Origin: a virus
Length of the DNA stretch: 64,000 bases
Virus record (IMG/VR): IMGVR_UViG_3300013132_000025
Location: 1-64,000 of that record
Strand: one strand, 5' to 3'
Both the position numbers and the translations under genes were made by a program. The notes beneath the pieces were generated by a model, which did not search any database, was not told where the DNA came from, and saw nothing but the letters and a program-made list of their open reading frames with translations. Below, piece by piece: positions 7,548 to 64,000 of this stretch (positions are counted from its first letter, which is position 1; each line of letters opens with the position of its first letter).

Positions 7548-7551
7548 TTAT

Positions 7552-9415: not shown

Positions 9416-9443
9416 CTCTTATATTAAGGCAAAGTGTCCCAAC

Positions 9444-9471: not shown

Positions 9472-9495
9472 CTGTCCTGCTTATTTATTTTTTGA

Positions 9496-9864: not shown

Positions 9865-9882
9865 TAAATCTCCTAGTTAATA

Positions 9883-10638: not shown

Positions 10639-10649
10639 ATATTTTTCCT

Positions 10650-11009: not shown

Positions 11010-11010
11010 T

Positions 11011-11568: not shown

Positions 11569-13478
11569 TAATAACTCATTGCGTTTACGTTGTAATTTTC
11601 CTGCAAATGCTCAGGATTTGGATCGTCATCATCACGATCTATAGGATATTCATGAGCAATATCCGGTTGTGTATTAATTACTCTGCCGGAACTAAAGTCA
11701 TAAAAGGCTATTTGTTGTTCTTGTTGGGCCAGTCGTAAGGCGTTTATTTCTTCTGGGACAATTCTTATTAGGTCTAGATAAACTAAGCCTTTCCCACCTT
11801 TTGTGTCATTCCAAGATCCGATTTTTACATCAGGATTGTGAGATAAGAACTTAGCGTGTTCATTTTTAAATCTTTTCACATCTTCTGCATCAAAATGATT
11901 AATATCAATAGCAGTTCCGTGATCGTTAAGGCCGACCCCAAATCCTTCTCCTTCGTACCCTGAGAAGTCTGAGTTCCAAGTAAAGCCTTGTCCTTCTTCA
12001 AATGTTTTGCTTATACCTTTGTGAAAATTAGGATGAACGTTTGCGGCAAATTTCATTTTTGATGATACCTTAGAGGGGTATAGAGTTTTTACAATATTTA
12101 ACAATTCTTGACGATTGTTTAGGGAAGGATGCTCAATGACCAAATCCATTATTTTTTTAATTATTTGCCCAACTTGTGGGCCTGATGAGATCCCCAATAA
12201 CTTAATAATATCATTACCGTTAATTGCAAGGTCTTTAGGAGAAAAAACTGCTTGCGATGCGGCTTCATTATTAATAAGACTTCTCATCTTATCAGTCATC
12301 ATCCGGGTAGCATTTTCATTACCTTTGCCCATATGATCTGCTTCTCGGAGGTTAAGTAGGTCGTGGGCTGTTTCTGGCGATCCTGAGTTATTAAGAAACT
12401 TTCTTGCGCCTTTTGGAGAATTAAAAGAAGGAAACATATGATTGTTAATTAAGTGTTTAATTCTACCAATTCGGTTTGCGGGATAGCGAAGCCTTGACAA
12501 TATTCCTTCAGCCATTTCTGCGCCAACTTCGTCGTGATTAGCACCTTGTCCTTGCTCTCCTTTATAGAAATGACCCACCCCGTTTTCATCTTCCCACATG
12601 GATGAGGGCTTACCAATATCGTGCAATAATGCTGCCATACGAACATCGGTGTCACTTGTCAATCCCGAAACATTTTTTAATACATTCATAATGTGTGTGC
12701 CTAAATCATGCTTATGATAAAAGTTTTTTTGATCAAACCCAAATGTGGAGTGAACTTCGGGAAGAAAATGATCTAACACTCCAGTTTCTTGACCAAGTTT
12801 AATTGCCTCAGATGGATAATTGCCTGACAAAATCTTTTCTAATTCTTGTCCAACGGTTTCCATTGGTGTCTTTTTGAGATGTGGGGCGTGCAATCTCATT
12901 TGTTCTTTTGTTTCTTCATCTGGTTGAAGTCCGTGTTTGCTTAAGGCGGTTAAGGCTCTCATTGTGCGAGAAGAATCATCACGAAAAGAATTTGAGTGAA
13001 CCGTTTTTAGAACACCATTTTCAATATCTTTTAATCCGTCAAATGGATCAACGACTTGTCCGGTTTTAGCATTTACAGCAATTGCGTTTGCAGTAAAATC
13101 TCTTCTTTCTAAATCTTTTTCTACAGGAATAGAAGAGTCAGATTTAATCTGCCAATCTTTATTTCCTTCTCCAGTTTTTACTTCAATACGAGGAAGAGCA
13201 ATCTCTACTTCGCTTCCCCCATAATTAAAACGATATACTGGGAATTGCTTTCCGGTCAAAGATAATTTTCCTTTAGGAACGCTTTTTAAGACTGATTCAA
13301 TTGTATCTCCGTTGACCTTAGCCATAATGTCAATATCTTTAGGCTTTTTGCCAAGGACAACATCTCTTGGCGCTCCACCGACAACATAAACTTCTCCAAA
13401 AGGGGAGAGGCTGTCAACTGCCATCTTTGCAGCGGGGTCATCATTTACAAGTCTTAAAATTGTTTCCGATAAATTCAT
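11568..13478 (-). CDS. cca: CCA-adding tRNA nucleotidyltransferase (class II, HD domain) with extra C-terminal domain
   Basis: VVGGAPRD..KDIDI, DLERRDFTANAIA, DPFDG, FRDDSSR, HD motif LLHDIGK, DLAINGNDI...GPQVG. Confidence 0.9.
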   Translation of the reverse strand: MNLSETILRLVNDDPAAKMAVDSLSPFGEVYVVGGAPRDVVLGKKPKDIDIMAKVNGDTIESVLKSVPKGKLSLTGKQFPVYRFNYGGSEVEIALPRIEVKTGEGNKDWQIKSDSSIPVEKDLERRDFTANAIAVNAKTGQVVDPFDGLKDIENGVLKTVHSNSFRDDSSRTMRALTALSKHGLQPDEETKEQMRLHAPHLKKTPMETVGQELEKILSGNYPSEAIKLGQETGVLDHFLPEVHSTFGFDQKNFYHKHDLGTHIMNVLKNVSGLTSDTDVRMAALLHDIGKPSSMWEDENGVGHFYKGEQGQGANHDEVGAEMAEGILSRLRYPANRIGRIKHLINNHMFPSFNSPKGARKFLNNSGSPETAHDLLNLREADHMGKGNENATRMMTDKMRSLINNEAASQAVFSPKDLAINGNDIIKLLGISSGPQVGQIIKKIMDLVIEHPSLNNRQELLNIVKTLYPSKVSSKMKFAANVHPNFHKGISKTFEEGQGFTWNSDFSGYEGEGFGVGLNDHGTAIDINHFDAEDVKRFKNEHAKFLSHNPDVKIGSWNDTKGGKGLVYLDLIRIVPEEINALRLAQQEQQIAFYDFSSGRVINTQPDIAHEYPIDRDDDDPNPEHLQENYNVNAMSY

Positions 13479-14171
13479 TTACGCAATCCTCTGGCCAATA
13501 TTTCTCAATCTGTCAAATGTTCCATTATTGTCAAGAAATTTATAAATAATATTTCCTTCACTATAGTCGCCATAAATGATTTGATCTTCTTTTCTTCTCT
13601 GATGTGCAATTTTGTACATCGCTTTAGCATCATCATATTTATTGGCATCTATTAATGAATTAATCTTGTCTGAAAACTGAATCCCTGTTGCAATCCAATC
13701 TGGCTTTTCTTCAGTTATATCAACTGATTTTGAGCGATCTGGTTTAACAACCCAATCATCTTTTTGAAAGTCCCAAGCAGCCCTCATTCCGAGGGAAAAG
13801 AGGTCGTAAATATCTATTCCATAAGGCTGTACAAAATGTTGATACCTATGAAGTGTTCTGGGGAAGAATTCTCCATCTAAAGAATTAACCACAATTGAAA
13901 TAAGATCTGCACGATCTTCTTCACTAAAGTCATCAAGGTTACAAACAATAGATACATCAACATCTGATGTTTCAGAATATTGATATGTGCAGAGCGAACC
14001 AGTCAGAAAATAATCAAAGGCATGTTTGTTAAACCCGTACTGACGAAAGACTTCATTTACATGATCTAAATGATAATCAAATAGTTCTTTTTTAGGAGTC
14101 ATCCCGTTGAACACATCTTGATCAAGTGTGGCATGAATTGGATCTAATATGTTGGCTTCTTTAGTTTTCAT
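13479..14171 (-). CDS. Pol-beta superfamily nucleotidyltransferase
   Basis: LTGS....Y...SDVDVSI motif; C-terminal GDYSEGNIIYKFL. Confidence 0.7.
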   Translation of the reverse strand: MKTKEANILDPIHATLDQDVFNGMTPKKELFDYHLDHVNEVFRQYGFNKHAFDYFLTGSLCTYQYSETSDVDVSIVCNLDDFSEEDRADLISIVVNSLDGEFFPRTLHRYQHFVQPYGIDIYDLFSLGMRAAWDFQKDDWVVKPDRSKSVDITEEKPDWIATGIQFSDKINSLIDANKYDDAKAMYKIAHQRRKEDQIIYGDYSEGNIIYKFLDNNGTFDRLRNIGQRIA

Positions 14172-15107
14172 TTAAAAAATATCTTTCGGGTCTGGAGATT
14201 CTTCATATTTTTGTTGCCAGTCAACTCCATGAACTCGTCTTTCAGGAAGGCGAGATTGGTGATACGGATCTGGATGGAAATTACTAAAATCAAAAGGCAT
14301 GTTTTCAATTAGCGGAATAGCACCTTTTGCAGATTTACTAAAACTTCCAATCGCGTGAGGGAGCATATATGCGTCTACCGCATTGTCATCATATCTCATA
14401 GTAAGCCCAATTGTTGCTGGAGAATAATTATCCCACAAACTTGTGTGAGAGAGTTTGTCAGCAATTGCTTTCTTTGAAGATTTTGCGCCGTATCCAGTAA
14501 CTATATATTTGTATGGTCTCAAGTTATGACCAGATGACGCTTTAATTTCGGCAGCAAAAGGTTCCTTGCCGTTACCAACATCATAATTGAATAAAGCATC
14601 TACGGGATGTTGGTCTGCCTCAACATCATGTTCATCATCAGAAAGCATCTGTAGCCCCGGAATGCGCCCGTGCCTTATAATCATTTCACCCAGACGACCA
14701 ACAAGGCGATTTCTTATCTTCATAGTGTCAGGATCTTCATCAGGGTGGATGTGACCCGGAGAGTTCATATATTGACCAAATTCTGGGTACTCATCAAAAT
14801 CTAGTCTTTCCAGTTTCTTTTTGGGAACAATAATTTTGCTTGCGGCAGTTACAAGTTTATCTGCAACATGAATATCTGAAGCAGAGATAACTTTATCTGG
14901 ATAAGATGCATTCCACAGTCTCGTAAAGTAATCAAGATTTGCCGGGGCAGTGACATTATCTTGGTGCAGCACAACTTTCCAGCCATCATCTGTTTGATGG
15001 AGTTCTCCAGAGATGTACTCGCCCTCTGGATCGGCAGTATTATAATTATCCGTTACAAGGATCAGGTCGTTCTTGATATCCCACAATATTTGCTTCATGG
15101 CCTTCAT
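14172..15107 (-). CDS. PD-(D/E)XK nuclease-fold protein
   Basis: GRLGE ... HPVDAL ... AEIKAS. Confidence 0.55.
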   Translation of the reverse strand: MKAMKQILWDIKNDLILVTDNYNTADPEGEYISGELHQTDDGWKVVLHQDNVTAPANLDYFTRLWNASYPDKVISASDIHVADKLVTAASKIIVPKKKLERLDFDEYPEFGQYMNSPGHIHPDEDPDTMKIRNRLVGRLGEMIIRHGRIPGLQMLSDDEHDVEADQHPVDALFNYDVGNGKEPFAAEIKASSGHNLRPYKYIVTGYGAKSSKKAIADKLSHTSLWDNYSPATIGLTMRYDDNAVDAYMLPHAIGSFSKSAKGAIPLIENMPFDFSNFHPDPYHQSRLPERRVHGVDWQQKYEESPDPKDIF

Positions 15108-15346
15108 TATCTTATATCCAACAAACTTTCATAATATCCGGTAAAAAACGCGAGCGCAAAGTAATACATCTCTTTTCGTTCGATTTGGTTTTCAATTGCT
15201 GAGTCCCAAAACTTTTCCATCGCATCTCCAAAAGAATGATCTATCTTTTTAAAATAGTCTCTCTTTTTCTTATGCCCTAGTCCGTCAATTATCTTATCAA
15301 CTGACCTAAGCCATGCCGCTCCGATTATGGTGTCCATATTATACAT
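15107..15346 (-). CDS. hypothetical protein
   Basis: 79 aa with SD GGGGGTGA upstream. Confidence 0.6.
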   Translation of the reverse strand: MYNMDTIIGAAWLRSVDKIIDGLGHKKKRDYFKKIDHSFGDAMEKFWDSAIENQIERKEMYYFALAFFTGYYESLLDIR

Positions 15347-15440
15347 GGAATCACCCCCAAAAGGCTTAAATAGGTGCTACACTACAAGTTAAGGAGTAGT
15401 AATTATAGGTTACTTAGTGAATACAGAAAGGATATAACTG

Positions 15441-17831: not shown

Positions 17832-17835
17832 TCCT

Positions 17836-17907
17836 TCGGGAGTAGTTCAGAGGTAGAACGAATGGCTGTTAACCATTATGTCGCAGGTTCGATCCCTGCC
17901 TCCCGAG
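17836..17907 (+). tRNA. trnN: tRNA-Asn(GTT)
   Basis: TCGGGAG/CTCCCGA acceptor, AATGG-CTGTTAA-CCATT, TTCGATC loop; no CCA. Confidence 0.95.
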
Positions 17908-17910
17908 TAA

Positions 17911-17981
17911 GCGGCTATAGTTTAGCGGTAGAACACTGGCCTTCCAAGCCATTAGCGCGGGTTCGATTCCCGCTAGCCGCT
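17911..17981 (+). tRNA. trnG: tRNA-Gly(TCC)
   Basis: GCGGCTA/TAGCCGC, CTTCCAA loop, U73; no CCA. Confidence 0.95.
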
Positions 17982-18009
17982 TAAAATAAAAACAAAGATT
18001 GGAGTATAT

Positions 18010-18190
18010 TATGATTAATGAACGCAAAAAGAACACAGATCTTCACAAGGGTAATCCAGAAATACTTCACCCAAACAAGTCCGAACAAGACAGAATGCCT
18101 TCAGCAGAAAGGCCTAGAGTTAAGAAAGCCCAGCAATGGGCAGACAATATGCAAAAGGAGAGACCTAGCGGCATAGGCTTAAACGGTTAG
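18010..18190 (+). CDS. small hypothetical protein between tRNAs
   Basis: ORF 17999..18190; GGAG precedes ATG at 18010. Confidence 0.45.
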
Positions 18191-18200
18191 TCTTATGCTT

Positions 18201-18273
<73 letters not shown>

Positions 18274-18276
18274 TTT

Positions 18277-18349
18277 GGGCGAGTAACTCAGCGGTTAGAG
18301 TGCCTGCTTTACACGCAGGAGGTCGGGGGTTCAAATCCCTCCTTGCCCA
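18277..18349 (+). tRNA. trnV: tRNA-Val(TAC)
   Basis: GGGCGAG/CTTGCCC, CCTGC-TTTACAC-GCAGG. Confidence 0.95.
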
Positions 18350-18355
18350 TCAGAA

Positions 18356-18439
18356 CGGAGCGTGGTGGAATTGGTAGACACAGCAGACTCAAAATCTGCC
18401 GGGGGTAACTCCGTGGGGGTTCAAATCCCTCCGCTCCGA
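18356..18439 (+). tRNA. trnL: tRNA-Leu(CAA)
   Basis: CGGAGCG/CGCTCCG, GCAGA-CTCAAAA-TCTGC, long variable arm. Confidence 0.95.
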
Positions 18440-18440
18440 C

Positions 18441-18512
18441 TGGCCTATCGTTCAATGGTAAGGACGCGATTCTTATAAAGTCGTAATTCGGGTTCGATTC
18501 CCGGTGGGCCTA
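18441..18512 (+). tRNA. trnI: tRNA-Ile(TAT)
   Basis: TGGCCTA/TGGGCCT (U1-U72 mismatch), CGATT-CTTATAA-AGTCG, TTCGATT loop, A73. Confidence 0.85.
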
Positions 18513-18650
18513 TTTTCATATCATAGATGGTTAGAAAGGGAAGACACAAGAAGTAAATCGGTAGTTATCAGATATGAAAACGTAACCACTCGTTTTAAAG
18601 TTAAAAAACGAGCAGATAAGTTCTAACCTAACCCACAACAAAAGGTATTT

Positions 18651-19169
18651 ATGTTTAAGTATATTACAATTGCAGCAGTGGCAATAGCCACGGCTATTGG
18701 AGTTTCCGGTTCGCTTCAAGCAGCAACCCAAGTAGCCGGTGGAGCGGGCGTGCAGGCAAAACATGAGAGAACTTACAAAAAGAAAGTTCCTTGCTATCAT
18801 CATGAAGGAAACGACAAGAAGAAATGTCTGACAGAATATAAAAAGCATCGTCAGCGCGATCTTGTTAAGTTTCCTCCTAATCCAACTCGGGAAGATGTGG
18901 CAAAACGAGTCCCTGATTGGCAAGGCTTTGTAAGATTAGGCAGATGTGAACAACCGGGTCATTCTAAGTACGGTGACGGTGTTAATTGGTCACATTCTGG
19001 GCCAACATGGGGCGGTGGTTTGGGCATTTATAAATCCACTTGGTTTATGGCAAATTCCCCATACAAACTCTGGTCTGGAGATAAGTGGGAAACAATTTTA
19101 GTTGCAGACGCGATTCGTGATCAAGTCGGTATTACGGCTTGGGGCGCACACGCATGTTTCTATGGCTAG
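18651..19169 (+). CDS. secreted resuscitation-promoting-factor (Rpf)-like transglycosylase
   Basis: Signal peptide; W..L..CE....NW...GGGLGI..STW...I.VA.......G..AW...C matches the Rpf pattern. Confidence 0.75.
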   Translation: MFKYITIAAVAIATAIGVSGSLQAATQVAGGAGVQAKHERTYKKKVPCYHHEGNDKKKCLTEYKKHRQRDLVKFPPNPTREDVAKRVPDWQGFVRLGRCEQPGHSKYGDGVNWSHSGPTWGGGLGIYKSTWFMANSPYKLWSGDKWETILVADAIRDQVGITAWGAHACFYG

Positions 19170-19194
19170 GAAGTTAGCATGGTCTGAGGCTGTC

Positions 19195-19203
19195 TGGTAT
19201 ACT
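19195..19203 (+). promoter_or_regulatory. extended -10 promoter before tRNA-Leu(TAA)
   Basis: TGgTATACT 11 nt upstream of the tRNA. Confidence 0.5.
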
Positions 19204-19214
19204 TTTAAGACAGC

Positions 19215-19296
19215 GGGGATGTGGCGGAATTGGCAGACGCAGAGGACTTAAAATCCTTGGCCTTCGGGCTTGTGGGTTCGACTCCCACCTTCCCTA
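19215..19296 (+). tRNA. trnL: tRNA-Leu(TAA)
   Basis: GAGGA-CTTAAAA-TCCTT, variable arm GGCC-TTCG-GGCT, TTCGACT loop. Confidence 0.95.
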
Positions 19297-19358
19297 TAGT
19301 TTAAATAGTGCAAATTTATTAGAATTTGCGGGGCATTAAAGTGCAAAGGATTGGACAA

Positions 19359-19565
19359 ATGGTTGAAAATACCGTGAGTGAAGATCAAAATCAAAGTCAG
19401 TTCGATAATCCATTAGATGAATACGAACGGGCAAAATCAGACTATCTATATGCTAGCAGGCATTATCCAAATTACTACGCAGTAAGTAGTTATATTGAGG
19501 CCGAAGAACGTGCTTGGGAAAGATTTGAAAGAGCATATCGCGCCCTACAAAAACTTGACGATTAG
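19359..19565 (+). CDS. hypothetical protein
   Basis: ORF 19326..19565; likely ATG at 19359. Confidence 0.5.
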   Translation: MVENTVSEDQNQSQFDNPLDEYERAKSDYLYASRHYPNYYAVSSYIEAEERAWERFERAYRALQKLDD

Positions 19566-19583
19566 CCGCCTGATTGATAGTCT
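19555..19583 (+). promoter_or_regulatory. sigma70-type promoter before tRNA-Glu
   Basis: TTGACG-N17-TAGTCT with extended TG. Confidence 0.7.
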
Positions 19584-19599
19584 ACAAATATAAGCGCTC

Positions 19600-19671
19600 G
19601 GGGCGTTCGTTTAGTGGTTAGGACACCGGGCTTTCATCCCGGCAACGCGGGTTCGATTCCCGCACGCCCTA
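19600..19671 (+). tRNA. trnE: tRNA-Glu(TTC)
   Basis: GGGGCGT/ACGCCCT, CCGGG-CTTTCAT-CCCGG. Confidence 0.95.
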
Positions 19672-19694
19672 CTAATAAAACAACAAGGAAAAAT

Positions 19695-19865
19695 ATGGCA
19701 CGCGCAAAACATCGCTGGAAGCACGCTCATAATCAGATGATTGCTCTAGTTAATAGAGTAGAGAGGCAACGCAAGCATCAGGAAATGCTTGAAGAGCATC
19801 GTAACATTAAGAAATCTGGACTTCGTGCGGAGGCAAAGTCTATCGAACCAGATCCCCAAGATTAG
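19695..19865 (+). CDS. small basic hypothetical protein
   Basis: MARAKHRWKH... with AAGGA SD; the longer track ORF overlaps tRNA-Glu. Confidence 0.55.
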   Translation: MARAKHRWKHAHNQMIALVNRVERQRKHQEMLEEHRNIKKSGLRAEAKSIEPDPQD

Positions 19866-19871
19866 ATTTAT

Positions 19872-19942
19872 TCCGGGGTCATCTAAAGGTAGGATAGGAG
19901 ACTTTGAATCTCTTCATGGTGGTTCGAATCCACCCCCCGGAT
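19872..19942 (+). tRNA. trnQ: tRNA-Gln(TTG)
   Basis: TCCGGGG/CCCCGGA, GGAGA-CTTTGAA-TCTCT. Confidence 0.93.
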
Positions 19943-19949
19943 CTATATC

Positions 19950-20183
19950 ATGAATATACTTTGGCTGTCTTGGATATTAGCAATACTTAGTTTGATTGGC
20001 ATGTGGAATGTCGGAAAGTACCGTCTTTGGGCTTGGATTTATCTTGGCGTGCTAGAGATTCTTTGGACATTCTATGGTATATTAACTGAGCAGTATGGTT
20101 TTCTTCTACTCACCGTAGGATATATAACGATCTATACGATCAATTACAAGCGTTGGAAGCAAAACCAAAAAGAAGTGCTATAA
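19950..20183 (+). CDS. small membrane protein, PnuC-like
   Basis: 77 aa, three TM helices, W-rich, ending Y..W typical of phage PnuC-like half-transporters. Confidence 0.5.
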   Translation: MNILWLSWILAILSLIGMWNVGKYRLWAWIYLGVLEILWTFYGILTEQYGFLLLTVGYITIYTINYKRWKQNQKEVL

Positions 20184-20184
20184 T
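20176..20184 (+). promoter_or_regulatory. extended -10 promoter before tRNA-Lys
   Basis: TGcTATAAT 8 nt upstream of the tRNA. Confidence 0.55.
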
Positions 20185-20192
20185 AACCTTAC

Positions 20193-20264
20193 GGCTCTAT
20201 GGCGTAACGGCAGCGTAGGGGACTTTTAATCCTTCAGGTCTAGGTTCGAATCCTAGTGGAGCCA
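20193..20264 (+). tRNA. trnK: tRNA-Lys(TTT)
   Basis: GGCTCTA/TGGAGCC, GGGGA-CTTTTAA-TCCTT. Confidence 0.92.
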
Positions 20265-20295
20265 TGTTCTGTAAACTAATAAAGGAGGCTGTGCT

Positions 20296-20823
20296 TTGAA
20301 TGCGGCTCTTGATAATCGTAATGTAGTTGATCATTACAAGTATTGGAACGAAGATGCAATCCGGGCATCGCTTGATACTAAGCGTTTTCCCTTTATCGTG
20401 GTGTGTGAAAATTTTGATAAAGACTTTAATATTTCAACTGTGGTTCGTAACTGCAATGCTTTTACGGGCAAAGAGATGTGGATCGTTGGGAACAAGCGTT
20501 GGGACCGGCGAGGGGCCGTAGGAACCCACAATTATGAACACATTAAGCACGCAGCAACTGTTGGTGAAGTGGTGCTTAAGTATTTAGATTATAAAGTAGT
20601 CGTTTGTGAGGCTTATCCAGAGGCTAAGGATATCCGCGACTACGATTGGCCTTTGAAGACTATTCTTGTCTTTGGTCAAGAGAGCATCCGGGTAACTGAC
20701 GAAACTCTTGCAATTGCTGATGATGTTGTGTATATTCCTCAGTATGGAAGTACGCGCTCTCTTAATGTTGGGTGCGCTTCTGCAATTGCAATGTATTCTT
20801 ATATTCAGCAGCATGGAGGTTAA
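20296..20823 (+). CDS. SpoU/TrmH-family RNA 2'-O-methyltransferase
   Basis: NISTVVR..AF, LVFGQE, IPQYG.TRSLNV..A..I.MY SPOUT motifs. Confidence 0.85.
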   Translation: MNAALDNRNVVDHYKYWNEDAIRASLDTKRFPFIVVCENFDKDFNISTVVRNCNAFTGKEMWIVGNKRWDRRGAVGTHNYEHIKHAATVGEVVLKYLDYKVVVCEAYPEAKDIRDYDWPLKTILVFGQESIRVTDETLAIADDVVYIPQYGSTRSLNVGCASAIAMYSYIQQHGG

Positions 20824-21044
20824 TGATGGATCGTATTGATGATATTCGTGCCAACTTAAACGAGTGGAGCGATCTTGGCATCGTGGAGCAAATGCGTCAT
20901 GGCGATGATTACGCCGATGGCTTTGCAGACGACATTGCATACCTGCTGGCGGAGGTTGAGCGGCTGCAAAAAGTAGAAAAGCATAGAGAAGAGTTGAGCA
21001 TCAAGTTGCGTGATAATCTCAATAATAGGAATTATGATGGCTAA
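20823..21044 (+). CDS. hypothetical protein
   Basis: ATG overlaps the upstream stop; DIAYLLAEVERL motif common in phage small proteins. Confidence 0.55.
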   Translation: MMDRIDDIRANLNEWSDLGIVEQMRHGDDYADGFADDIAYLLAEVERLQKVEKHREELSIKLRDNLNNRNYDG

Positions 21045-21465
21045 TAAGATTGAAGAATTTTTAGCCGTAACTGAAAATATGGCAGAACGTTCTACCCTTA
21101 AGCGTTTTCAAGTTGGTGCCCTTATCCACAAGGATGGAGAGATTAATACCGGCTGGGCGCATATGTCTGACCTTAAGTTGGAGAAGTATATTTCTATTCA
21201 TGCAGAGATGCACGCTCTTTGGCGCTCTAACCCCAAGGCTCTAGAGAACGCCGATTGCTATATTGTTACTCTTTCTGCTAAGAGTAAGAACCGAACTAGC
21301 GGTAAGCCTTGTGAGACTTGCATGGCGCATCTTTATGATGCTGGCATCCGTAAGGTCTACTATTCGGTTAGTAATGATGAGTACGGAGTTATTGATTTTA
21401 GGAATGGTTTTCCTGAGATTGAAATGATTAAGACTCGCACTCCTAATGATTGGTCAAATAACTAA
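21034..21465 (+). CDS. cytidine/dCMP deaminase-family protein
   Basis: HAE ... PCETC zinc motif, AGIRKVYY. Confidence 0.85.
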   Translation: MMANKIEEFLAVTENMAERSTLKRFQVGALIHKDGEINTGWAHMSDLKLEKYISIHAEMHALWRSNPKALENADCYIVTLSAKSKNRTSGKPCETCMAHLYDAGIRKVYYSVSNDEYGVIDFRNGFPEIEMIKTRTPNDWSNN

Positions 21466-22550
21466 TGTATGATTACCTTATTGTAGGCGCAGGATTGTTT
21501 GGAGCAACCTTTGGGCGCTTAATGACAGACGCCGGTAAGAGTTGTATGATTATTGACAAACGCAACCATGTAGGTGGAAATGTTTATACTGAAAATTCTG
21601 ATGGGATTCATGTTCATAAGTATGGTCCTCATATCTTTCATACGTCCAACGATGAAATTTGGAACTTTGTAAATAAGTTTACTGAGTTCAATAATTACAT
21701 CCATCGTGTAAAAGCATATAACAACCATAAGTTCTATACGCTTCCTTTTAACCTTAAAACTTTTAACGAGATTATGGGTACGCAAAGTCCCGTACTTCTA
21801 GAAAAGTTTCTTAATGAAAGAGAACGGGACGAAACAAATCTAGAAACTTGTGCAATTTCTCTCGTTGGAGAAGAAGTGTATAAAACTTTGATTAAGGGAT
21901 ATACTGAAAAGCAATGGGGCAGGCAAGCAACACAACTTCCTGCTTCTATTATTAAAAGAATTCCTGTACGTCTTACGTTTGAAGATAATTACTTTAACGA
22001 TAAGTATCAGGGTATTCCAGTAAACGGATATACAAAAATGATTGAAAAAATAATTGAGGGAATTCCTATTCTACTTAATCAAAACTTTACTCATGATATG
22101 AAAGACATTGCGAACAAAATTGTGTACACAGGACCGATTGATCAGTTCTTTAATTACGCCCTTGGTCGTTTAGAGTATCGTTCATTAGAGTTTGTTGAAG
22201 AAGAATATGAATATGATTACTATCAAGGATGCGCTCAAATCAATTACACAAATAAAGAGATTCCTTTTACAAGGATAATAGAACATAAGCATTTTTACCC
22301 TAGCCTTAAAGTAGGCAAAACAATCGTTACTAGAGAGTTTCCTGTGGCATCTGGCGATCCATACTATCCAATAGCAGATGATAAGAACAACAAACTTTTT
22401 CTTGAATATAAGGATATGGCCAGTCAAAAAAGACCGGAGGTTATCTTTGCTGGCAGGCTAGGTAATTATAAGTATTATGATATGCACCAAGTTATTGGTC
22501 AGGCAATGAAGTATGCTAAACTAGAAAAAGAAAAGAGTGCGAACAGTTAA
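21465..22550 (+). CDS. glf: UDP-galactopyranose mutase
   Basis: IVGAGLFG, HKYGPHIFHT, YTEKQWG, YQGIP..GY, LEYRSL, PYYP, GRLG.YKYYDM. Confidence 0.95.
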   Translation: MYDYLIVGAGLFGATFGRLMTDAGKSCMIIDKRNHVGGNVYTENSDGIHVHKYGPHIFHTSNDEIWNFVNKFTEFNNYIHRVKAYNNHKFYTLPFNLKTFNEIMGTQSPVLLEKFLNERERDETNLETCAISLVGEEVYKTLIKGYTEKQWGRQATQLPASIIKRIPVRLTFEDNYFNDKYQGIPVNGYTKMIEKIIEGIPILLNQNFTHDMKDIANKIVYTGPIDQFFNYALGRLEYRSLEFVEEEYEYDYYQGCAQINYTNKEIPFTRIIEHKHFYPSLKVGKTIVTREFPVASGDPYYPIADDKNNKLFLEYKDMASQKRPEVIFAGRLGNYKYYDMHQVIGQAMKYAKLEKEKSANS

Positions 22551-22563
22551 AGAGTGGTAACTT

Positions 22564-22846
22564 GGGGATGAATTAGTTTCGACCTATAGAGAAGCCAAGT
22601 CAATCAGCGGTTAGTCACCTTATAACTCCTGCTTGGATAAGCAAATAAATATAAATGGCAACTTAAACGAAGTCATTGTCCCAGACACTTTCCCCGCCTC
22701 ATGGATAGAGGAATTTGCTGGGGTAGCCGCCTAATCTACCACTATTAGGCACTGTAGTTAAAACTGTAGTACAATGTAGTATATAGGCTGTATAAGTTGA
22801 TTTGATAGAACTATATGGGACACCGGGGCAGAGCCGGTCATCTCCA
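22564..22846 (+). ncRNA. ssrA: tmRNA (compact, about 283 nt)
   Basis: GGGGATG/CATCTCC-A acceptor with G3-U70; 5' TTTCGAC; tag 22657..22734 GNLNEVIVPDTFPASWIEEFAGVAA*; GGTAG/CTACC hairpin over the stop. Confidence 0.9.
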
Positions 22847-22851
22847 TACAA

Positions 22852-22926
22852 CGCGGGGTAGGGCAGTCAGGTCAGCCCGTCGGCTTCATGCGTCGAAGGT
22901 CGCAGGTTCGAATCCTGCCCCCGCTA
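22852..22926 (+). tRNA. initiator-type tRNA-Met(CAT) with atypical anticodon arm
   Basis: CGCGGGG/CCCCGCT with C1-U72 mismatch, G11-C24; anticodon arm TCGGC-TTCATGC-GTCGA. Confidence 0.88.
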
Positions 22927-54914: not shown

Positions 54915-57389
54915 TTAGTTAAAGATCGCGTCGTCTGGAACGACACCAGCGTTTGAAGATGCTGAAGATTCCTTAACACCCTTGAAGGATGGGAAACCAG
55001 CCAACTTCTTAGCAGGAGCCTCTTTCTTTCCAAGTCCAGCCTCTTTAATCTTTACTAAAGTCTCGTACTTGGCCTCAACAATTGAGGGTTCTTCGTTTTC
55101 TAACTCAGCGACTCTTGCATACTTCATTTCCGCCTCGTTAAGACCTAATTCAACTTCTAGGTCTGCGAGTTTAATTGCAGAAAGCACCGCAGATTCGCGG
55201 CCCTTACCCGGCAATTGTGCGTGATGTTCTGAAATACCCTTAGTACCACCCTCGTCTGAGAACTGAGGCTTTTCAACCTCTTTCTTGACTGGAGCATATT
55301 GCTCAGGCATGGTCTCTGGGTTGTGATTCTTAATATCTTTTGTATTACCCTCGTCGGCGTACTGTGGTTGTTCAACTTCCTTCTTTACACTCTGGTACTG
55401 TTCAGCCTGTGTTCCGGGCTGGTGTTCAGCAATGTCAGAAGACTCGTTGTTTTTGTCACCCTTAAATTGTGGGGTGCTTTCTCCACCGTTCGGTTGAGTA
55501 AGTCCGGGTAATTCACCAAGAGCAACCTTGGTAGCACTTTCTACTGGCTTAGTCTGGTCAGAAATTACCTTTTCGCCCTTTGGACGATCTGACGCAGGCT
55601 TACCGTCGTCTACCAGCGGAGTTGCACTTGAAGAAGCGCTTGATTCCTTTTCAGGAACAGTCCAACCAAGTTCGGCTAGATATTCATCGCCGGGGACTTC
55701 TTCAACATCTGCCGCAAGTGTTATATTTGCTTGTTTAGTATTCATCGTACTATTAACACTCCGTATTTCATTCTTTGATAGTGTTTTTTTCAATCTATCA
55801 ATAAGGCTTTTGGTATCAGACCTGAACTCTTCTTTGTTTTGTTCTTTCTTACGATCAAACGCCTTAGCCTTTGATAAATCTGGATCTGCTAATGGTGCGG
55901 GAGGTTCCTGATATCCACACTTTTCACATCTACCAGACTCATCATCTAAACCACATTCCCCGGCAAGCCCGTTTGGACAAGGTTTATCACCTTTCAATGT
56001 ATCAATCTTGCTAGGTGCAGTAATAGACTCCCCATATTTTTCTGTATTCATACTCGAACTTCTTTCACATGGAGATTTATCAAAATTATCCTCTAAACTT
56101 TGTGTTTCGGTATTCGCTGCTTTTAAGTTATCAGTTCCATTAACGGCAGTTTCTATACCATCTTCGTAGGCTTTCATATATTTATGCATATTTGCATTAT
56201 AAGGCTCTACTCCTAAATATTCTGCCATCTTAACAGAATCAAATTCAGGCACTTCTACGGGGCTATAGTGATAAGATTCTCCAGCATGGAAAGCCCTTTT
56301 AATCAAATCATTTTCTACATATCCAACCTTAGCGATCTTTGCTTGGATACCAACTTGATTTAACCACTCTTTATCTTGTCCGGTAATATTACTAGTGGGA
56401 AGCAATGAGGTCGCCTCCACTTCGGTTTGACCACCATCGTCCCATTGTACCTTGTAAGTTTTAAAAGAATCCCCATATTCGTCAGAATTAAGTTCTTCAA
56501 CATATTTAACAACGCCTTCTTTGCCAGATTCGGCTTCTTTAACTTTTTCTCCAACAGAAAAATCTGTCGTTTCCACCGCAGCGTGCTTAACCACAGGTTC
56601 TGTGAATAAAGCGGTCACATCTGCGGGATCAAATACAGCCGAAATCTCAAAAAAGTTGACATTATAGCAATCTTCATAGGCTAACTTGTCAATGCTTCCA
56701 GTTTTAAACGTTGTTCCTTTTTTCTTTATGTGGCTACAATAATCTTCTACCGTAGCCGCCTTGTGATTACAGATAGAACAAAGAGTATGTTCAACATTAC
56801 ATCCCATAGAAACTGCGTTTACTTTTCCATCAAACAGGGCTTTGGCTAGTTTGGGAAAAGATTTTCCATCAATTTCAAGTAATAATTCAATCCATGTTTC
56901 TGGTTTGTGATTATTTGGGGCACTTGACCAATATGAATCCGAGGCCAGTCTTTGAGGATTTTCAATATGAAGCATTGCATCAACAACAACACCTCTTGCT
57001 CTTTGCGGATCTGAATTATTGTGATCAATAAAAACAGGCCTTCCCACAAAGGTTCTGAACCCGTAATCGCCTTTAGACTTAATTTCAGCACTATCGCCAG
57101 TAAAGGTTAACTTACTTATTCCGCCAGTCTCTGAAGTCTTGGCTAGTTTTGAAACAACTTCTCTGAAATCTGTCTCATCCATTCCAGCAAGTTCGTTGAC
57201 AGGCCAACCATCAAAATTCTTATTGACCCGAGAAGAAATAGCACGAACTTTTACATAAATATACCCATCTCCAGTGCGGTAAGTGTTTTTTGGAATGTGA
57301 TCAAAAGAAGATAGTTTTGCACCACCTTCAATTTTCTCATCGGCACTTTTTACTTCAATTACTTCACAATTGGTATATTTAGTTAGCAT
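54915..57389 (-). CDS. prohead protease/scaffold protein
   Basis: RAISSRVNKN.D.W, F.G.PVF.DH.N, VSMGC....CSIC...YC.H, FFEISAV..PAD; acidic scaffold-like C-terminus. Confidence 0.75.
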   Translation of the reverse strand: MLTKYTNCEVIEVKSADEKIEGGAKLSSFDHIPKNTYRTGDGYIYVKVRAISSRVNKNFDGWPVNELAGMDETDFREVVSKLAKTSETGGISKLTFTGDSAEIKSKGDYGFRTFVGRPVFIDHNNSDPQRARGVVVDAMLHIENPQRLASDSYWSSAPNNHKPETWIELLLEIDGKSFPKLAKALFDGKVNAVSMGCNVEHTLCSICNHKAATVEDYCSHIKKKGTTFKTGSIDKLAYEDCYNVNFFEISAVFDPADVTALFTEPVVKHAAVETTDFSVGEKVKEAESGKEGVVKYVEELNSDEYGDSFKTYKVQWDDGGQTEVEATSLLPTSNITGQDKEWLNQVGIQAKIAKVGYVENDLIKRAFHAGESYHYSPVEVPEFDSVKMAEYLGVEPYNANMHKYMKAYEDGIETAVNGTDNLKAANTETQSLEDNFDKSPCERSSSMNTEKYGESITAPSKIDTLKGDKPCPNGLAGECGLDDESGRCEKCGYQEPPAPLADPDLSKAKAFDRKKEQNKEEFRSDTKSLIDRLKKTLSKNEIRSVNSTMNTKQANITLAADVEEVPGDEYLAELGWTVPEKESSASSSATPLVDDGKPASDRPKGEKVISDQTKPVESATKVALGELPGLTQPNGGESTPQFKGDKNNESSDIAEHQPGTQAEQYQSVKKEVEQPQYADEGNTKDIKNHNPETMPEQYAPVKKEVEKPQFSDEGGTKGISEHHAQLPGKGRESAVLSAIKLADLEVELGLNEAEMKYARVAELENEEPSIVEAKYETLVKIKEAGLGKKEAPAKKLAGFPSFKGVKESSASSNAGVVPDDAIFN

Positions 57390-57656: not shown

Positions 57657-58250
57657 TTACTTTTTTAGTTTTGCAACGAAACTGTCTTTGGTTTCTGATA
57701 CGCTTGCAATCTTGTAACCTTCAAAAGAGGCGTCAAATGAAATAAGTTCTTCAACTTCAGCAGTAGCAGAGGCTAGAGTTAAGCCATCTTCTTTTTCTCT
57801 TTCAAGATCCATTTCTTCACCCTCATCGCCCTCTTCGTCCTCTGGGCCAAAATCGGGGCGAACCTCGTCTTCATTTCCTTCAGATTCTTTGATTTGAGCA
57901 ACAAGGTCTTCAACCTTGTCTAGAGCGTCTTGAAGTTGTCCCATAAGTCTTTCTTGCTTACCCTCTTCTGCTTCATACGCAGTGTCAGGCTCGTCATCTG
58001 CTCCGGGAGAAAAAATTTCATCCGGTGCCGTTTCGTCCATTCCCATTTCATCCATTGCCATTTCTTTAGCAGGGATTTCATCTTGAACATTCTGATTTTG
58101 GTATGCTTCTCTTTGAATAAAAGCAATCCAACCAGTGTTTGATTCTTTTAGACCGCGCACCTCATATTCTGGGTAGGCTTGGCGGAAAGTGTTTAGCGCT
58201 TCATCATATGAGGCTTCTCCCTCAATGCGAGCAATTGCGGTTTTATACAT
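57657..58250 (-). CDS. acidic hypothetical protein (head assembly region)
   Basis: 197 aa, very acidic, SD AAGGAG. Confidence 0.6.
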   Translation of the reverse strand: MYKTAIARIEGEASYDEALNTFRQAYPEYEVRGLKESNTGWIAFIQREAYQNQNVQDEIPAKEMAMDEMGMDETAPDEIFSPGADDEPDTAYEAEEGKQERLMGQLQDALDKVEDLVAQIKESEGNEDEVRPDFGPEDEEGDEGEEMDLEREKEDGLTLASATAEVEELISFDASFEGYKIASVSETKDSFVAKLKK

Positions 58251-58454: not shown

Positions 58455-59183
58455 TTATGTTTTGATTATATATTGTAACGTCATGTACGGAGGATTGTTA
58501 GAACCAGTTTGCCCCGTTCCAGCGGCTCCAGTATCGTTAGTTGAAGGAGCGCCCGTGTTGGCAGAAGAGGGGGTTCCCGTACTACCTACAGAAGCCCCAC
58601 CTGTTGATCCGTTTAGATTTGGAATATAAATAGGATGATAATGATTAAATGCAGCGTGCGTACTGAGAGATTTAACTAAGTAAAAATTTTTAGGGGCATT
58701 TTGGGCACCCACATCTTCTACCGCCTGTCTTGCTGCTTCAGGATTTGTGTAAACCCCGCCACCGGAAGTGTTTATAACCGTTCCACTTACAGTAACTCCG
58801 TGAGTGTGTTCCATTCCGTGGGTGTGATTTTGCATTGAATGGGTGTGATTCCCCATATTGTGAGTGTGAGAGGGACCAGAGTGAGTGTGATCAAAACTTC
58901 CCCCGGTTACACCAACGGCAGTTCCAGATGCTGTTGTGCCAAATCCAAGGATCATTCTTCTTCTCAGGTCGGGGACACCGAATGCAGATCCCGAACCACC
59001 ATAAGTTGTTCCAATTGCGGCAAAAAGATTTGGATAAGTTGCAGTTCCATAACTTTCTCCATTACAGAAAAGCCATCCTGTTGGGGGAGTTGTTGCGGTT
59101 CCACCATAGGGCATTATAATTCCAGACGGCAGGTAGAAAGATTCTCTCGGTTCGTCTGATAGAATATCACCAAAATCTGCCAT
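58455..59183 (-). CDS. collar-domain fibre protein with HxH repeats
   Basis: PSG.I.PY.G...P.GWL.CNG...PDLR; five HTH motifs; NNPPY..L.YIIK. Confidence 0.75.
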   Translation of the reverse strand: MADFGDILSDEPRESFYLPSGIIMPYGGTATTPPTGWLFCNGESYGTATYPNLFAAIGTTYGGSGSAFGVPDLRRRMILGFGTTASGTAVGVTGGSFDHTHSGPSHTHNMGNHTHSMQNHTHGMEHTHGVTVSGTVINTSGGGVYTNPEAARQAVEDVGAQNAPKNFYLVKSLSTHAAFNHYHPIYIPNLNGSTGGASVGSTGTPSSANTGAPSTNDTGAAGTGQTGSNNPPYMTLQYIIKT

Positions 59184-61231: not shown

Positions 61232-64000
61232 TTATGTTCCCCAAATGCTGTGAATTCTATTATATAAACTCATGAATTCATCTAGCATTTCTGGCGGAAC
61301 TTTTTCTGCATTTGCAATAATAGAACTTAGTAAATACTCTTCAACCCTAAGATTTTCATCTTCAATACCCGTTTCTGCATTTTGTATAGTTATGTCTATA
61401 TCGTTCATTACTTCTTCTAACCATTCAGGATTGTAATGTATTGCATCAGCGGGAACTCCACCATTTACAGCAACCGAGCCTATTAAATTTTTACTTGCCT
61501 TGACATTTTTAGGAGTATCTAAATGAGAATGTTCGTGCATCCAATCTCCAAGCGTACTGCCTTGATGTTGTTCTTGTTCAAAAGGTGGACTTTTAATATT
61601 TTTAAAATCTATTAAGTGAGAATAATTATTGTTATACCCATAAACTGGAAATAAATCTTCATCCGGGGCTAGCGTAGAGGGATCTACTTTAGACATATCA
61701 ACTCTTAACGCAGGTTTTCTTGATTTTGAATAAAAATCTTTTTTTCCTATATAAACATGATCTGGCCTTGATGTAAGCCAGTCATCGTACTCTGCAATCC
61801 CCGTTTGTTCCTTTGGTAAAATTCCATTCTTAAATATAGAATCTATGACGGGGATATGTTCTATCCACCCATCCTTACTTCTTGCTGCCGAAACGTCATG
61901 ATACATATATGGGTCTTCAGCAAACAATTCTTTTGCTTGTTGTTCATTTAATACAGATCTTTTCTTAAAGTTGCGTACTTTGTGTGTTTTTAGCGGTCCA
62001 TATTTACGAACAGACTTCTGATGATCTTTTAGAGATGTTTGAAATTTGGGATGAACTTTTCTTTTATTCTTGTTTGCAATCTTCCATTTAGATTGTCTTT
62101 CCCATTCATTCCATCGAAACGGTTGCTTACCTTTAGCCGCAAACCATTTGTCCCAATATTTTCTATATTCGGGTTTAGGTAAATCATTATGTCTTCCTAA
62201 TATTGGACTATCAAAGCCTGTTGCGCCTCCAGAATCATAGGTTGCGTGAGGTAAGTTTTCGGGGTCTCTCAAAGAATAAATTGCCTTATCATCTCTTCTT
62301 ATTTCTTTATCAAAATAATCTTCCCACGGGAAATCGTGGTGTCTTTCAATTGAAAAGTTTGGGTCTATACTAGCAGCAACATCGCAATATGGTGGTGGCC
62401 ACTCTCCTTCTGGAGTCATACAATTGCTCATCAAAGTTCCCTCTCTATGAGCATCACCTATTGTATTTAATTTGCGAATAGTCCACCCATCGTCAAATGT
62501 GTGAACAATATCCGAAGTATCTGTATAATTTTCATCTAAATCTTTAGCATCTTGCAAAAGACGAGTTTTTGTTTTTCTTGCAATCTTCCATTTTCCAATT
62601 TTACTTAACTCAAAATCTTCTTTATTGCTTGGTAATGCTGGATTTGCATTTCCCTCTGCATCAGAAAAGAGATAAATGCCATTGAGGGGATACCCAGACC
62701 GATCAGCGGCTTCTTGCCAATAATCTCGGTAATGTTCGTGTGGGTGCTGGAAATCTTCTACTCCACCAGCAGTTTCTGTGTAGCCAAATCTTTCATACTC
62801 GCTTGGAGTTGAAAGGTGCAACAATTCATTAGTTTCTGGATTATAAAGACCGCGCCAACCTTGAGATGGCTCAAATATTTTATATAAACTTTTTGGAGTT
62901 TCCATTTCTCCGTGGTAAGTTGTCCATTTCGGGCCGACAACCATATCGCCCTCTGGGGTTATCCCTGCGGCATGAAAACCTTCCACCCAATGAGAACGCT
63001 TCTTCCATTTAGATTCTTTTGTTTCCCACCCATTGTAAAACGCATTGTCTTCGAAACCCTTTACTTTTTCTTTAACAGGAATTCCTATCATATGAGGAGG
63101 AAAATGTGGTGGAATATAAAGATTTCCTAAAGCATCTGTTTGATTTCCTTGCCAATATGCAGGCAGTTCTTTAAAGTGTGTTTTGCCGTAGCCGCGAATA
63201 CCTCTAGCGGGAATCCATTCCATTCCTAATTTTTTTGCAACTTGAACTCTATGATTTCCTTCTGCAATATAGGCCGTATTAGTATCTTTATTAAATTCAA
63301 CAATAATTGGTTCTAGAAATCCATGTTCGGAGATATGTTTTGTAAGATTATTAATATTTTCTCTTTCATAATCTTCTTTGCCTCTTTCAAAGTCCAACAT
63401 TTGCATTGCAACATCTACAGGAATTTCTTCAACAGCCTTTGTTTCAAAGTATCGGGAGGGTTCTGTGTTTTCTAAATCCCAAAGGCCTATTGCAATTTTT
63501 TTCCACTTAGATTCTTTATATCCAACAGGTTGAATAATTAAATCGTATGGGTGTTTGCCATGATCAAAGTGAAAGGACCAACGCTTTTTCTCTTTATATA
63601 ATTTAAGATCTTCTAAAGCGTGCCCATCTTGTTCTTTTGCTTCTGAATCAATCTTTTTATTGTCGTGGGGATTCTTTTTATTTATATATCCATTTTTAAG
63701 TTGCTTTAGCCATTTGACGGTTTGCTTTTTAACTTCTTCCCACGTTCCTGTTGTAATAATATCGTGGCCCAACTCTCCATCAAGGACGGCTTCCCATGCA
63801 TCTTTTTTAGATACTTTCCATTTAGATTCTTTAAATGAAGCCCATTGATCCCAAGGATGGTTAATGCCGTATTGATCAAAAAAAACTTTCCAATATGGGA
63901 CGTATTCATCTTTTATATCAGAATTGTGTCTTCCTAAAGGTGGATTTTCTGGATTTTCTGGATCATACCGATATTCATCATCTTGCCAATCGGCATTATA
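61232..64000 (-). CDS. giant multidomain (polyvalent) protein, 5'-truncated by window end
   Basis: Frame stays open from 63772 to 64000. Contains ParB/Srx-like (EGNHR), PcfJ-like (EG..M.NC..IYSLRD..PHAT) and ART/Tpt1-like (YH..SI.KNGI.P..VY..LRVD) domains. Confidence 0.8.
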   Translation of the reverse strand, partial: YNADWQDDEYRYDPENPENPPLGRHNSDIKDEYVPYWKVFFDQYGINHPWDQWASFKESKWKVSKKDAWEAVLDGELGHDIITTGTWEEVKKQTVKWLKQLKNGYINKKNPHDNKKIDSEAKEQDGHALEDLKLYKEKKRWSFHFDHGKHPYDLIIQPVGYKESKWKKIAIGLWDLENTEPSRYFETKAVEEIPVDVAMQMLDFERGKEDYERENINNLTKHISEHGFLEPIIVEFNKDTNTAYIAEGNHRVQVAKKLGMEWIPARGIRGYGKTHFKELPAYWQGNQTDALGNLYIPPHFPPHMIGIPVKEKVKGFEDNAFYNGWETKESKWKKRSHWVEGFHAAGITPEGDMVVGPKWTTYHGEMETPKSLYKIFEPSQGWRGLYNPETNELLHLSTPSEYERFGYTETAGGVEDFQHPHEHYRDYWQEAADRSGYPLNGIYLFSDAEGNANPALPSNKEDFELSKIGKWKIARKTKTRLLQDAKDLDENYTDTSDIVHTFDDGWTIRKLNTIGDAHREGTLMSNCMTPEGEWPPPYCDVAASIDPNFSIERHHDFPWEDYFDKEIRRDDKAIYSLRDPENLPHATYDSGGATGFDSPILGRHNDLPKPEYRKYWDKWFAAKGKQPFRWNEWERQSKWKIANKNKRKVHPKFQTSLKDHQKSVRKYGPLKTHKVRNFKKRSVLNEQQAKELFAEDPYMYHDVSAARSKDGWIEHIPVIDSIFKNGILPKEQTGIAEYDDWLTSRPDHVYIGKKDFYSKSRKPALRVDMSKVDPSTLAPDEDLFPVYGYNNNYSHLIDFKNIKSPPFEQEQHQGSTLGDWMHEHSHLDTPKNVKASKNLIGSVAVNGGVPADAIHYNPEWLEEVMNDIDITIQNAETGIEDENLRVEEYLLSSIIANAEKVPPEMLDEFMSLYNRIHSIWGT

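Follow-up and report, generated by a model that had tools for sequence, protein, structure and literature searches.

A repeated translated joint marks cassette borders in a giant polyvalent protein of an uncultured phage

Polyvalent proteins are thought to be an anti-defence payload that is injected together with phage DNA. In the main text of the reference survey, metallopeptidase domains of such proteins are predicted to release domains autoproteolytically, the processing of P1 DdrB is cited, the words "linker" and "PcfJ" do not occur, and no standard junction peptide was seen (Iyer et al., 2017; PMC5512222). Here we describe a giant polyvalent gene of the IMG/VR virus record IMGVR_UViG_3300013132_000025, together with a short peptide, the joint, that is repeated along its product. 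The window, that is the whole stretch of DNA that was analysed, comprises the first 64,000 bases of this 129,640-base record. The open reading frame (ORF) occupies contig positions 61232-70876 on the minus strand, starts with ATG at 70876 and encodes 3214 residues; its C-terminal 922 codons and the stop lie in the window at 61232..64000, and the 2292 codons that precede these are outside the window. Like the proteins described in the main text of PMC5512222, this one, for which 16 giant homologues were found, combines many unrelated effector-type domains in one polypeptide, is phage-encoded beside virion genes and has a mosaic, fast-changing architecture; it also contains a ParB-type domain and a metallopeptidase-like module, and homologues add methyltransferase domains. 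By its fused effector domains and its late-gene location the giant protein qualifies as polyvalent, and it would presumably be delivered by the virion. Unlike the proteins as presented there, it has one conserved joint that marks most borders and is the crossover point.

Exchange of modules at short conserved sequences has been described for the T-even adhesins gp37 and gp38, where conserved glycine-rich motifs or His boxes stand between hypervariable segments (PMC3157838; Tetart 1996/1998, cited there), and for the promoter/stem-loop cassettes termed PeSLs, through which gene modules are shuffled in T4-type phages (PMC2839356, PMC4122927). The joint shares with the adhesins the use of short conserved motifs within an ORF as in-frame segment-swap sites, and with the PeSLs the placing of repeated short conserved sequences at the flanks of modules that are exchanged among related phages. 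In the adhesins, however, the motifs build the core structure of a single domain whose loops are swapped, whereas the joint is an unstructured spacer and whole unrelated domains are swapped around it; the PeSLs are intergenic regulatory DNA, whereas the joint is part of a single reading frame and is translated. What is new relative to known polyvalent proteins and to motif-mediated domain swapping is a standard translated joint that marks whole-domain exchange. None of the literature matches listed for "SKWK" had a phage context, and no description of the joint was found among them.

The exact tetrapeptide SKWK occurs eight times in the 3214-residue protein, against 0.038 occurrences expected from composition (about 200-fold), and the variant forms GKWK, SKWE, SKWI and SKRK bring the total to 12 joints, with [KR]-[EQ]-S-K-W-K-(K)-[IVTK]-[AS] as the consensus used here. 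All 11 matches of the pattern [SG]KW[KEI] fall inside the giant ORF and none in the other 154 of the 155 called ORFs (40,208 residues); a six-frame scan of the record added a single SKWK, outside the called ORF set. The first-pass annotation, made from the sequence alone, had reported five of these peptides (KESKWKVS, KESKWKKIA, KESKWKKRS, KIGKWKIA and RQSKWKIA) in an ORF that reaches the window end; all five stand on the minus strand where it had placed them, the full ORF was recovered as given above, and the motif scan that it had suggested over the whole proteome found SKWK in this ORF only among those called. At the nucleotide level, a 12-nucleotide core, TCTAARTGGAAR, is present in seven copies in the record, all of them in the giant gene and in its sense orientation; the reversed pattern, used as a control, gave no match in the same record. 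Within the window, joints of the gene are found on the minus strand for example at 63815-63826, 63500-63511, 63002-63013 and 62081-62092.

A full-length search among 3706 candidates returned 17 proteins at E <= 0.001, namely the giant protein and 16 others of 1876-3396 residues, all from uncultured phages; the contigs of nine of the 16 measure 105-135 kb, and for the remainder the longest contig is 9-46 kb. Exact SKWK is found in 15 of the 16 homologues, with 2-11 copies each where 0.02-0.04 are expected, and is absent from P0018, the most distant of them. From 119 distinct windows the consensus [K74/R14]-[E32/Q24/K13]-S108-K119-W119-K100-[K45/I44]-[A33/S27/K18]-[S40/A15] was obtained, and the motif is retained between proteins that are less than 50% identical. 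One could suppose that such a pattern is a chance or low-complexity repetition in a protein that is rich in lysine (8.4% K), or an artefact of assembly or annotation. We give this next to no credence, since it is refuted by the roughly 200-fold excess, by the retention of the motif in 15 of 16 homologues from independent contigs and by its position at domain borders. Two relatives, P0015 and P0017, carry longer junction elements of 25-45 residues that are rich in W and K, most of them with SK[WR]K at the end, of the forms KHRK.I.DKWEP..WWKGSK[WR]K and ...DKWKVQ...LEWATEEDFPKKRWESS.K; in P0018 the junctions read [ST][AS]N.W[DE], an acidic form, five times and [KR]T[AS][AN] ten times. That these lineages have junction motifs of their own suggests that a reader co-evolves with them. 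A scan of IMG/VR with a 20-nucleotide pattern gave 27 matches, two of which clearly belong to the family by their translation (L022 and L026, the contigs of loci L005 and L006); most of the remaining matches were out of frame or unrelated, and L034 and L013 have a single core each. No cultured relative turned up at E <= 1e-3 when residues 293-3214 were compared by tblastn with 50,697 phage records.

The position of the joints relative to the domains could be followed in several ways. In BLASTP comparisons with the 16 homologues (155 high-scoring segment pairs, HSPs), 126 of the 310 HSP ends lay no more than 10 residues from a joint, against 7.7% by chance. Cutting all 17 proteins at the motif gave 153 segments of at least 25 residues, which group into 19 recurrent cassettes plus 41 singletons; P0001 contains at least 12 segments delimited by the motif. 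The recurrent cassettes keep a near-constant length, while their order and number vary between proteins: cassette Ac measures 105-106 residues from motif to motif in 11 proteins, the ParB cassette 164-182 residues in seven proteins, cassette Aa 94-196 residues (mostly 138-167) in 18 copies from eight proteins, the cassette with an HExxH motif 232-238 residues in nine proteins, and the N-terminal cassette 196 residues in eight proteins. An AlphaFold2 model of residues 2340-2775, built on a 20-row alignment, gave predicted local distance difference test (pLDDT) values of 70-91 for Ac and 90-97 for the core of the ParB cassette. The second joint, between these two, falls within a 24-residue stretch of pLDDT below 50 that separates confident domains, and the first lies in a coil following a helix; the alignment is shallow at the joints, which is in itself a cause of lower confidence there. 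Since cassette Aa folded poorly in this multi-cassette model (pLDDT 27-65), the low confidence at the third and fourth joints is uninformative. The question raised in the first-pass annotation, whether the motifs lie in disordered linkers between domains, is answered in the affirmative for the second joint and, as a coil, for the first. The joint is shown by these comparisons to be an in-frame cassette border that stands at domain edges and outside folds, which also upholds the earlier description of the gene as a polyprotein of unrelated domains with a linker at their boundaries; the further claim that the linker is a cleavage or capsid-targeting signal stays at the level of inference.

In relatives, gene borders take the place of some joints. 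An exhaustive profile-free search with the 922 residues encoded in the window gave 501 matches at E <= 0.001, and among the matches listed (the best 150 of 501) several small proteins match one cassette end to end. P0037, of 107 residues, ends with ...PVGYKEDN at the place where the giant protein reads on as ...PVGYKESKWK, and P0066, P0063, P0067, P0120 and P0122 (141-186 residues) match the PcfJ-like cassette; the stand-alone homologues of both the Ac and the PcfJ-like cassettes start and stop where the joints would stand and are devoid of the SKWK motif. A search for short stand-alone Ac proteins gave one match among eight candidates, an 81-residue fragment. In locus L007, which represents the P0017 lineage, three successive ORFs at 899-10645, 10686-14141 and 14132-15433 (3249, 1151 and 433 residues) share the cassettes among them. 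The second and third of these overlap by 10 nucleotides at a junction element, and the third starts with MGIMKKRSYFEEF at the place where P0012 reads SKWKKVSYFEEF. Fused and split states of the gene seem to interconvert. The motif also stands at the extreme N-termini of P0029 (MKWKIVS...), P0005 (MWKKV...) and P0011; complete motifs are found at the C-termini of P0011, P0020 and P0021 (...SKWKIC*) and of P0059, P0070 and P0081 (...FSKW[KQ].AKV*).

The first-pass annotation had missed a nucleotide-exact exchange of cassettes at the joint, which is directly visible when the giant gene is compared with that of L005. Inside the cassettes common to the two genes the nucleotide identity is about 75-90%, and at all four junctions inspected it begins or ends exactly at TCTAARTGGAAR. 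In the blastn comparison, 9 of 20 HSP ends lie within 15 nucleotides of the core, against 5.6% by chance. The core is present in five and four copies in the contigs of two relatives, each set confined to one strand, and after conversion to locus coordinates all nine copies fall within polyvalent ORFs. On the strength of these nucleotide comparisons the joint is shown to be the crossover point for the exchange of cassettes between related phages, and the exchange keeps the reading frame because the crossovers fall within the 12-nucleotide core of the joint.

The exact coincidence at four of four junctions, together with the 9 of 20 HSP ends close to the core, would also be expected if the joint were a DNA-level recombination element, whose core of 12-15 nucleotides serves as microhomology or as the site of a dedicated enzyme and whose peptide is a tolerated, uncut spacer. 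The serine codon of the joint is in line with this, being TCT in 21 of 23 joints from three phages (p 4e-6 against all Ser codons, 2.5e-3 against TCN only), and the complete motifs at protein ends resemble cassette flanks that were carried along. However, the lysine codons of the joint are mixed between AAA and AAG, both of them vary, and the rarer AAG is enriched (11 of 22, against 20% gene-wide; p 0.0016). Since these codons vary freely, the exact identity extends over at most about 12 nucleotides and the peptide is under selection. Moreover, the flanks are conserved as amino-acid classes (K or R at -2, E or Q at -1, a small residue at +5/+6) and not as bases, the motif persists even where the proteins share less than half of their residues, and no recombinase gene is associated with the joint, the only one being a UvsX-like recombinase elsewhere in the genome. 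We consider a recombination element a possible but doubtful explanation for the joint. As a separate observation, in joints with TCT the +1 frame reads TAA followed directly by ATG or GTG. An internal start or a frameshift at the joint was considered and rejected: the ATG within AAA-TGG is out of frame, and in an informal look no consistent ribosome-binding site was seen.

The internal proteins (IPs) and Alt of phage T4 carry a capsid-targeting sequence and are cut by gp21, and inner-body proteins of phiKZ are cut by gp175. The sites of these maturation proteases end in Glu (L/I-x-E or S/A/G-x-E) and are common to capsid and scaffold substrates. Polyproteins of RNA viruses, in turn, carry conserved protease junctions. 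With the head-internal proteins the giant gene shares that the cargo is encoded together with head genes, and in those phages a short signal is recognised by the maturation protease; unlike their sites, SKWK has no such Glu and does not recur in the other head proteins of this phage. The joint lacks the features looked for in a capsid-targeting or prohead-protease signal of the T4 type, as SKWK occurs in no other called ORF and no L/I-x-E is present at the joints. The likeness to RNA-virus polyproteins consists in a conserved short motif at domain junctions and in the presence of the same units as separate genes in some relatives; in contrast to them, no dedicated protease was identified here and the junctions double as recombination points.

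The explanation that we tentatively favour, as quite possible rather than probable, is that the joint peptide is conserved because a protease reads it. The giant gene would then be a chain of autonomous effector-type cassettes separated by a standard unstructured joint, and selection would keep the peptide as a recognition site for either the prohead protease or the HExxH cassette that is carried by 10 of the 17 family members. Such a protease might release the effectors from the chain one by one, inside the head or once they have been injected, and relatives might reach the same separate units by ordinary gene borders at the same places. The effectors would be delivered with the DNA, which we infer from the location of the gene in the late/head block and from the general proposals for polyvalent proteins. 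We favour this reading because a short motif that is strictly conserved in the disordered stretches linking unrelated domains is reminiscent of viral polyproteins, because relatives split the same units by gene borders and distant lineages have a junction motif of their own, and because polyvalent proteins are predicted to be processed, as stated in the main text of PMC5512222.

Several observations weigh against a protease as the reader of the joint. There is no direct sign of cleavage, and no protease co-varies with the joint in the data reached: the HExxH cassette is missing from seven of the 17 proteins (P0012-P0018), yet the joint is retained in P0012-P0017. The capsid, scaffold-protease and portal proteins, expected co-substrates of a prohead protease, contain no SKWK. 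A cut at the motifs that stand at the extreme ends of proteins would release a few residues only, certain borders in the same protein read K-T-[SA] and have no SKWK, and the TCT bias hints at a constraint on DNA or RNA beyond the peptide alone. A complex prediction for the HExxH cassette, zinc and a 36-residue joint peptide, made with no controls, yielded a score of 0.01 and no answer, and is evidence neither way. We also considered K-E-S as a common prohead-protease site, given that KES is found at the capsid N-terminus and within two KESSASS stretches of the protease-scaffold protein, and rejected it: the proteome contains 19 KES against about 11 expected, one L005 site reads KEA, and cassette Ac ends in GYKES even in P0017 and P0026, in which it is not followed by SKWK. 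The sequence AK[IT]AKV in the protease-scaffold protein (residues 341-346) resembles the C-terminal SKWKIAKV of P0059 and is a lead only, [KR][TIV][AS] being too common.

Lys-Trp-Lys is a classic tripeptide that stacks on DNA and binds apurinic/apyrimidinic sites. The K-W-K core of the joint, flanked by more Lys, could act as an uncleaved cationic Trp anchor, repeated along the polyprotein. It would hold the polyprotein to the packaged DNA, to an acidic partner in the scaffold or the inner capsid or, at the time of ejection, to the membrane of the host. Such a tether would suit the tolerance of the motif at either protein end, as in a tag, and the longer W/K-rich elements of P0015 and P0017, and a very acidic protein of 197 residues (57657-58250) and an acidic scaffold region are encoded beside the protease. 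On the other hand, the distant P0018 uses an acidic W motif (...N.W[DE][DE]), a single tag would be enough to load one polypeptide, and the stand-alone homologues do without the motif. We regard a tether as unlikely.

Recognition by a protease, recombination and tethering are not mutually exclusive, and a functional peptide under constraint would itself create short conserved DNA at which in-frame crossovers survive. One could go further and see in TCTAARTGGAAR a dedicated exchange site that is recognised by an enzyme, an "integron for protein domains" by which these phages would add, remove and rearrange effector cassettes in frame inside a single giant gene, and in which S-K-W-K doubles as a cut or loading signal. 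This would explain the nucleotide-exact crossovers, the near-fixed TCT beside varying Lys codons, the motifs at protein ends and the restriction of the core to polyvalent genes; we nevertheless rate it as improbable.

The joint points to a simple rule for the diversification of polyvalent proteins, in which autonomous domains are bounded by one joint and exchange there gives new combinations without a broken frame or fold. It also offers a means of dividing giant phage proteins that lack annotation into their units. Of the 19 recurrent cassettes, the majority belong to no known family and may have new functions in host takeover, and the joint itself is a testable cleavage or loading signal and a natural design for modular fusion proteins. 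Should the joint prove to direct proteolysis or packaging, it would represent a novel signal, different from the Glu-ending sites that T4 and phiKZ use.

Read in the direction of translation, the part of the gene inside the window begins with the tail of a first PcfJ-like cassette (63842..64000, minus strand as for all parts of the gene; residues 2293-2345, with the domain starting near residue 2187), which matches P0014, P0018 and a second PcfJ-like cassette by BLASTP and is included in alignment A5. The PcfJ-like tail that the first-pass annotation had noticed before the first linker is real, residues 2187-2345 being paralogous to residues 2766-2928. The joint KESKWKVS (63809..63832, residues 2349-2356) follows, at which nucleotide identity with the L005 gene starts, and then cassette Ac (63518..63808), of about 100 residues and of unknown function, which has its stand-alone homologue in P0037. 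The joint KESKWKKIA (63491..63517, residues 2454-2462) is the one in the stretch of low pLDDT, and the nucleotide identity with L005 ends just past it. Next come the ParB/Srx-like cassette (63020..63490), the joint KESKWKKRS (62993..63019, residues 2620-2628), cassette Aa (62603..62992; HW.G[FY]HAA ... RGLYNP.T..L[IL]H..[ST]P), whose function is unknown and whose 18 copies are all motif-delimited, and the joint KIGKWKIA (62579..62602, residues 2759-2766), in which Gly replaces Ser. The second PcfJ-like cassette (62099..62578) is followed by the joint RQSKWKIA (62075..62098, residues 2927-2934), where nucleotide identity with L005, which reads GKWK here, resumes. The C-terminal cassette (61235..62074) consists of a basic low-confidence lead-in of about 40 residues, an ART-like core and a helical hairpin, as indicated by AlphaFold2, VIA-align and invariant residues.

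Concerning the identity of the cassettes, the domain calls of the first-pass annotation are mostly upheld, with unequal firmness. ParB/Srx is solid: Pfam ParB_N (PF02195) matches with E 1.6e-7 and 31.7 bits against a cut-off of 26.3, Foldseek finds Noc, ParB and sulfiredoxin structures with E 9e-5 to 1e-3 and probability 1.00, and a GNHR motif is visible. The PcfJ-like assignment is by remote homology only. None of the 24 members of alignment A5 matches Pfam PcfJ (PF14284) at E <= 0.01, and the cassette alone has no Pfam match at E <= 10; the A5 profile aligns by hhalign with residues 308-417 of P0016 (probability 97.6%, E 3.8e-12), in which Pfam PcfJ lies at 340-405 (E 2.4e-11). The former ART/Tpt1-like call is weak, and the C-terminal cassette may be termed ART-like, no more. 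Its AlphaFold2 model (pLDDT 77) gave nothing at E <= 0.001 in Foldseek, where the weak top rows include OspC3, DarT1, DarT, Tpt1, KptA and PltA, and its sole domain-scale match in VIA-align is DarT1 (8baq_A; Z 7.5, root-mean-square deviation 3.5, 147 aligned residues), within the band that the tool calls "common". Residues Y59 and H60, Y109, and D139, E140 and D141 of alignment A2 are invariant in 12 sequences and are candidates for the catalytic H/Y/E triad of ADP-ribosyltransferases (ARTs) of the DarT and Tpt1/KptA clade; DarT/PARP, Arr and OspC, with Atlas scores of 0.83-0.86, are below 0.9 and thus leads only.

The HExxH cassette, of 233 residues (706-938 of the giant protein) with the sequence WHELQHAY, has its nearest Pfam peptidases in M91 (E 0.023) and M78 (E 0.077), both below the cut-offs. 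Cassette Aa, whose copies were aligned in A4 after an alignment that included 2000-residue mosaics (A3) had misaligned them and was replaced, has a weak match to DUF5648 (E 9e-5, below the cut-off), and its Atlas leads, the XOO_2897 and MafB19 deaminases, score 0.78-0.85, again below 0.9 and leads only. The N-terminal cassette corresponds to phrog_3170, of unknown function, and extra cassettes in homologues include an S-adenosylmethionine methyltransferase, DUF5661 and a helix-turn-helix domain. Searches of PDB sequences with the C-terminal profile and with the N-terminal, HExxH and Aa cassettes gave nothing usable, and most cassettes have no match to a Pfam family.

The record, with an estimated completeness of 82% (CheckV) and a G+C content of about 40%, is that of a myovirus: genes for tail sheath, baseplate, tail-fibre/collar, cement, major capsid and protease-scaffold proteins lie within the window, and past its end the same record encodes a portal protein, a large terminase, a DNA polymerase, a primase, a helicase and UvsX-like proteins. 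Its capsid protein is 53-55% identical to capsid proteins of mycobacteriophages of the Myrna or cluster C type. The giant gene sits in the late/head block, upstream of the protease-scaffold and capsid genes and on the same strand, and the order polyvalent gene, protease-scaffold, capsid is found again in L005 and L007. The prohead protease-scaffold fusion (54915..57389, minus strand; 824 residues), a candidate trans-acting protease, matches the head maturation protease family phrog_18299 (E 4.9e-24), and its protease domain is 41% identical to Myrna gp97 (over residues 41-215). Myrna gp96, which has the syntenic position, was considered as a counterpart of the giant protein and rejected as unrelated and devoid of the SKWK motif.

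Within the protease-scaffold protein, residues 660-722 (window 55224-55412, minus strand) form a tandem duplication of about 33 residues, ..EQY.(S/P)VKKEVE.PQ..DEG.TK.I..H, and the KESSASS stretches stand at residues 581 and 806. The acidic 197-residue protein is encoded between a collar gene and the protease, has no family match and is conserved in L007. This collar gene (58455-59183), located among the head genes, encodes a tail-collar protein (Pfam Collar, E 7e-19) with a run of H-T-H / H-x-H repeats and is adjoined by the gene of a 264-residue protein that has no assignment. Directly upstream of the giant gene, an ORF for a pyrimidine-dimer DNA glycosylase is located at contig 70930-71364 on the minus strand (L001:9930-10364; Pfam Pyr_excise, E 2.3e-21). 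Farther along the contig, a helicase gene is split or interrupted, the adjoining ORFs at 76032-77120 and 77142-78329 (L002) corresponding to positions 457-696 and 151-463 of phrog_1967. Eleven tRNA genes are clustered at 17835-22926 of the window on the plus strand (Asn, Gly, Arg, Val, Leu twice, Ile, Glu, Gln, Lys and Met), and at 2049-5867 three consecutive tail-fibre/collar paralogues have their N-terminal parts in common and differ in their C-terminal parts.

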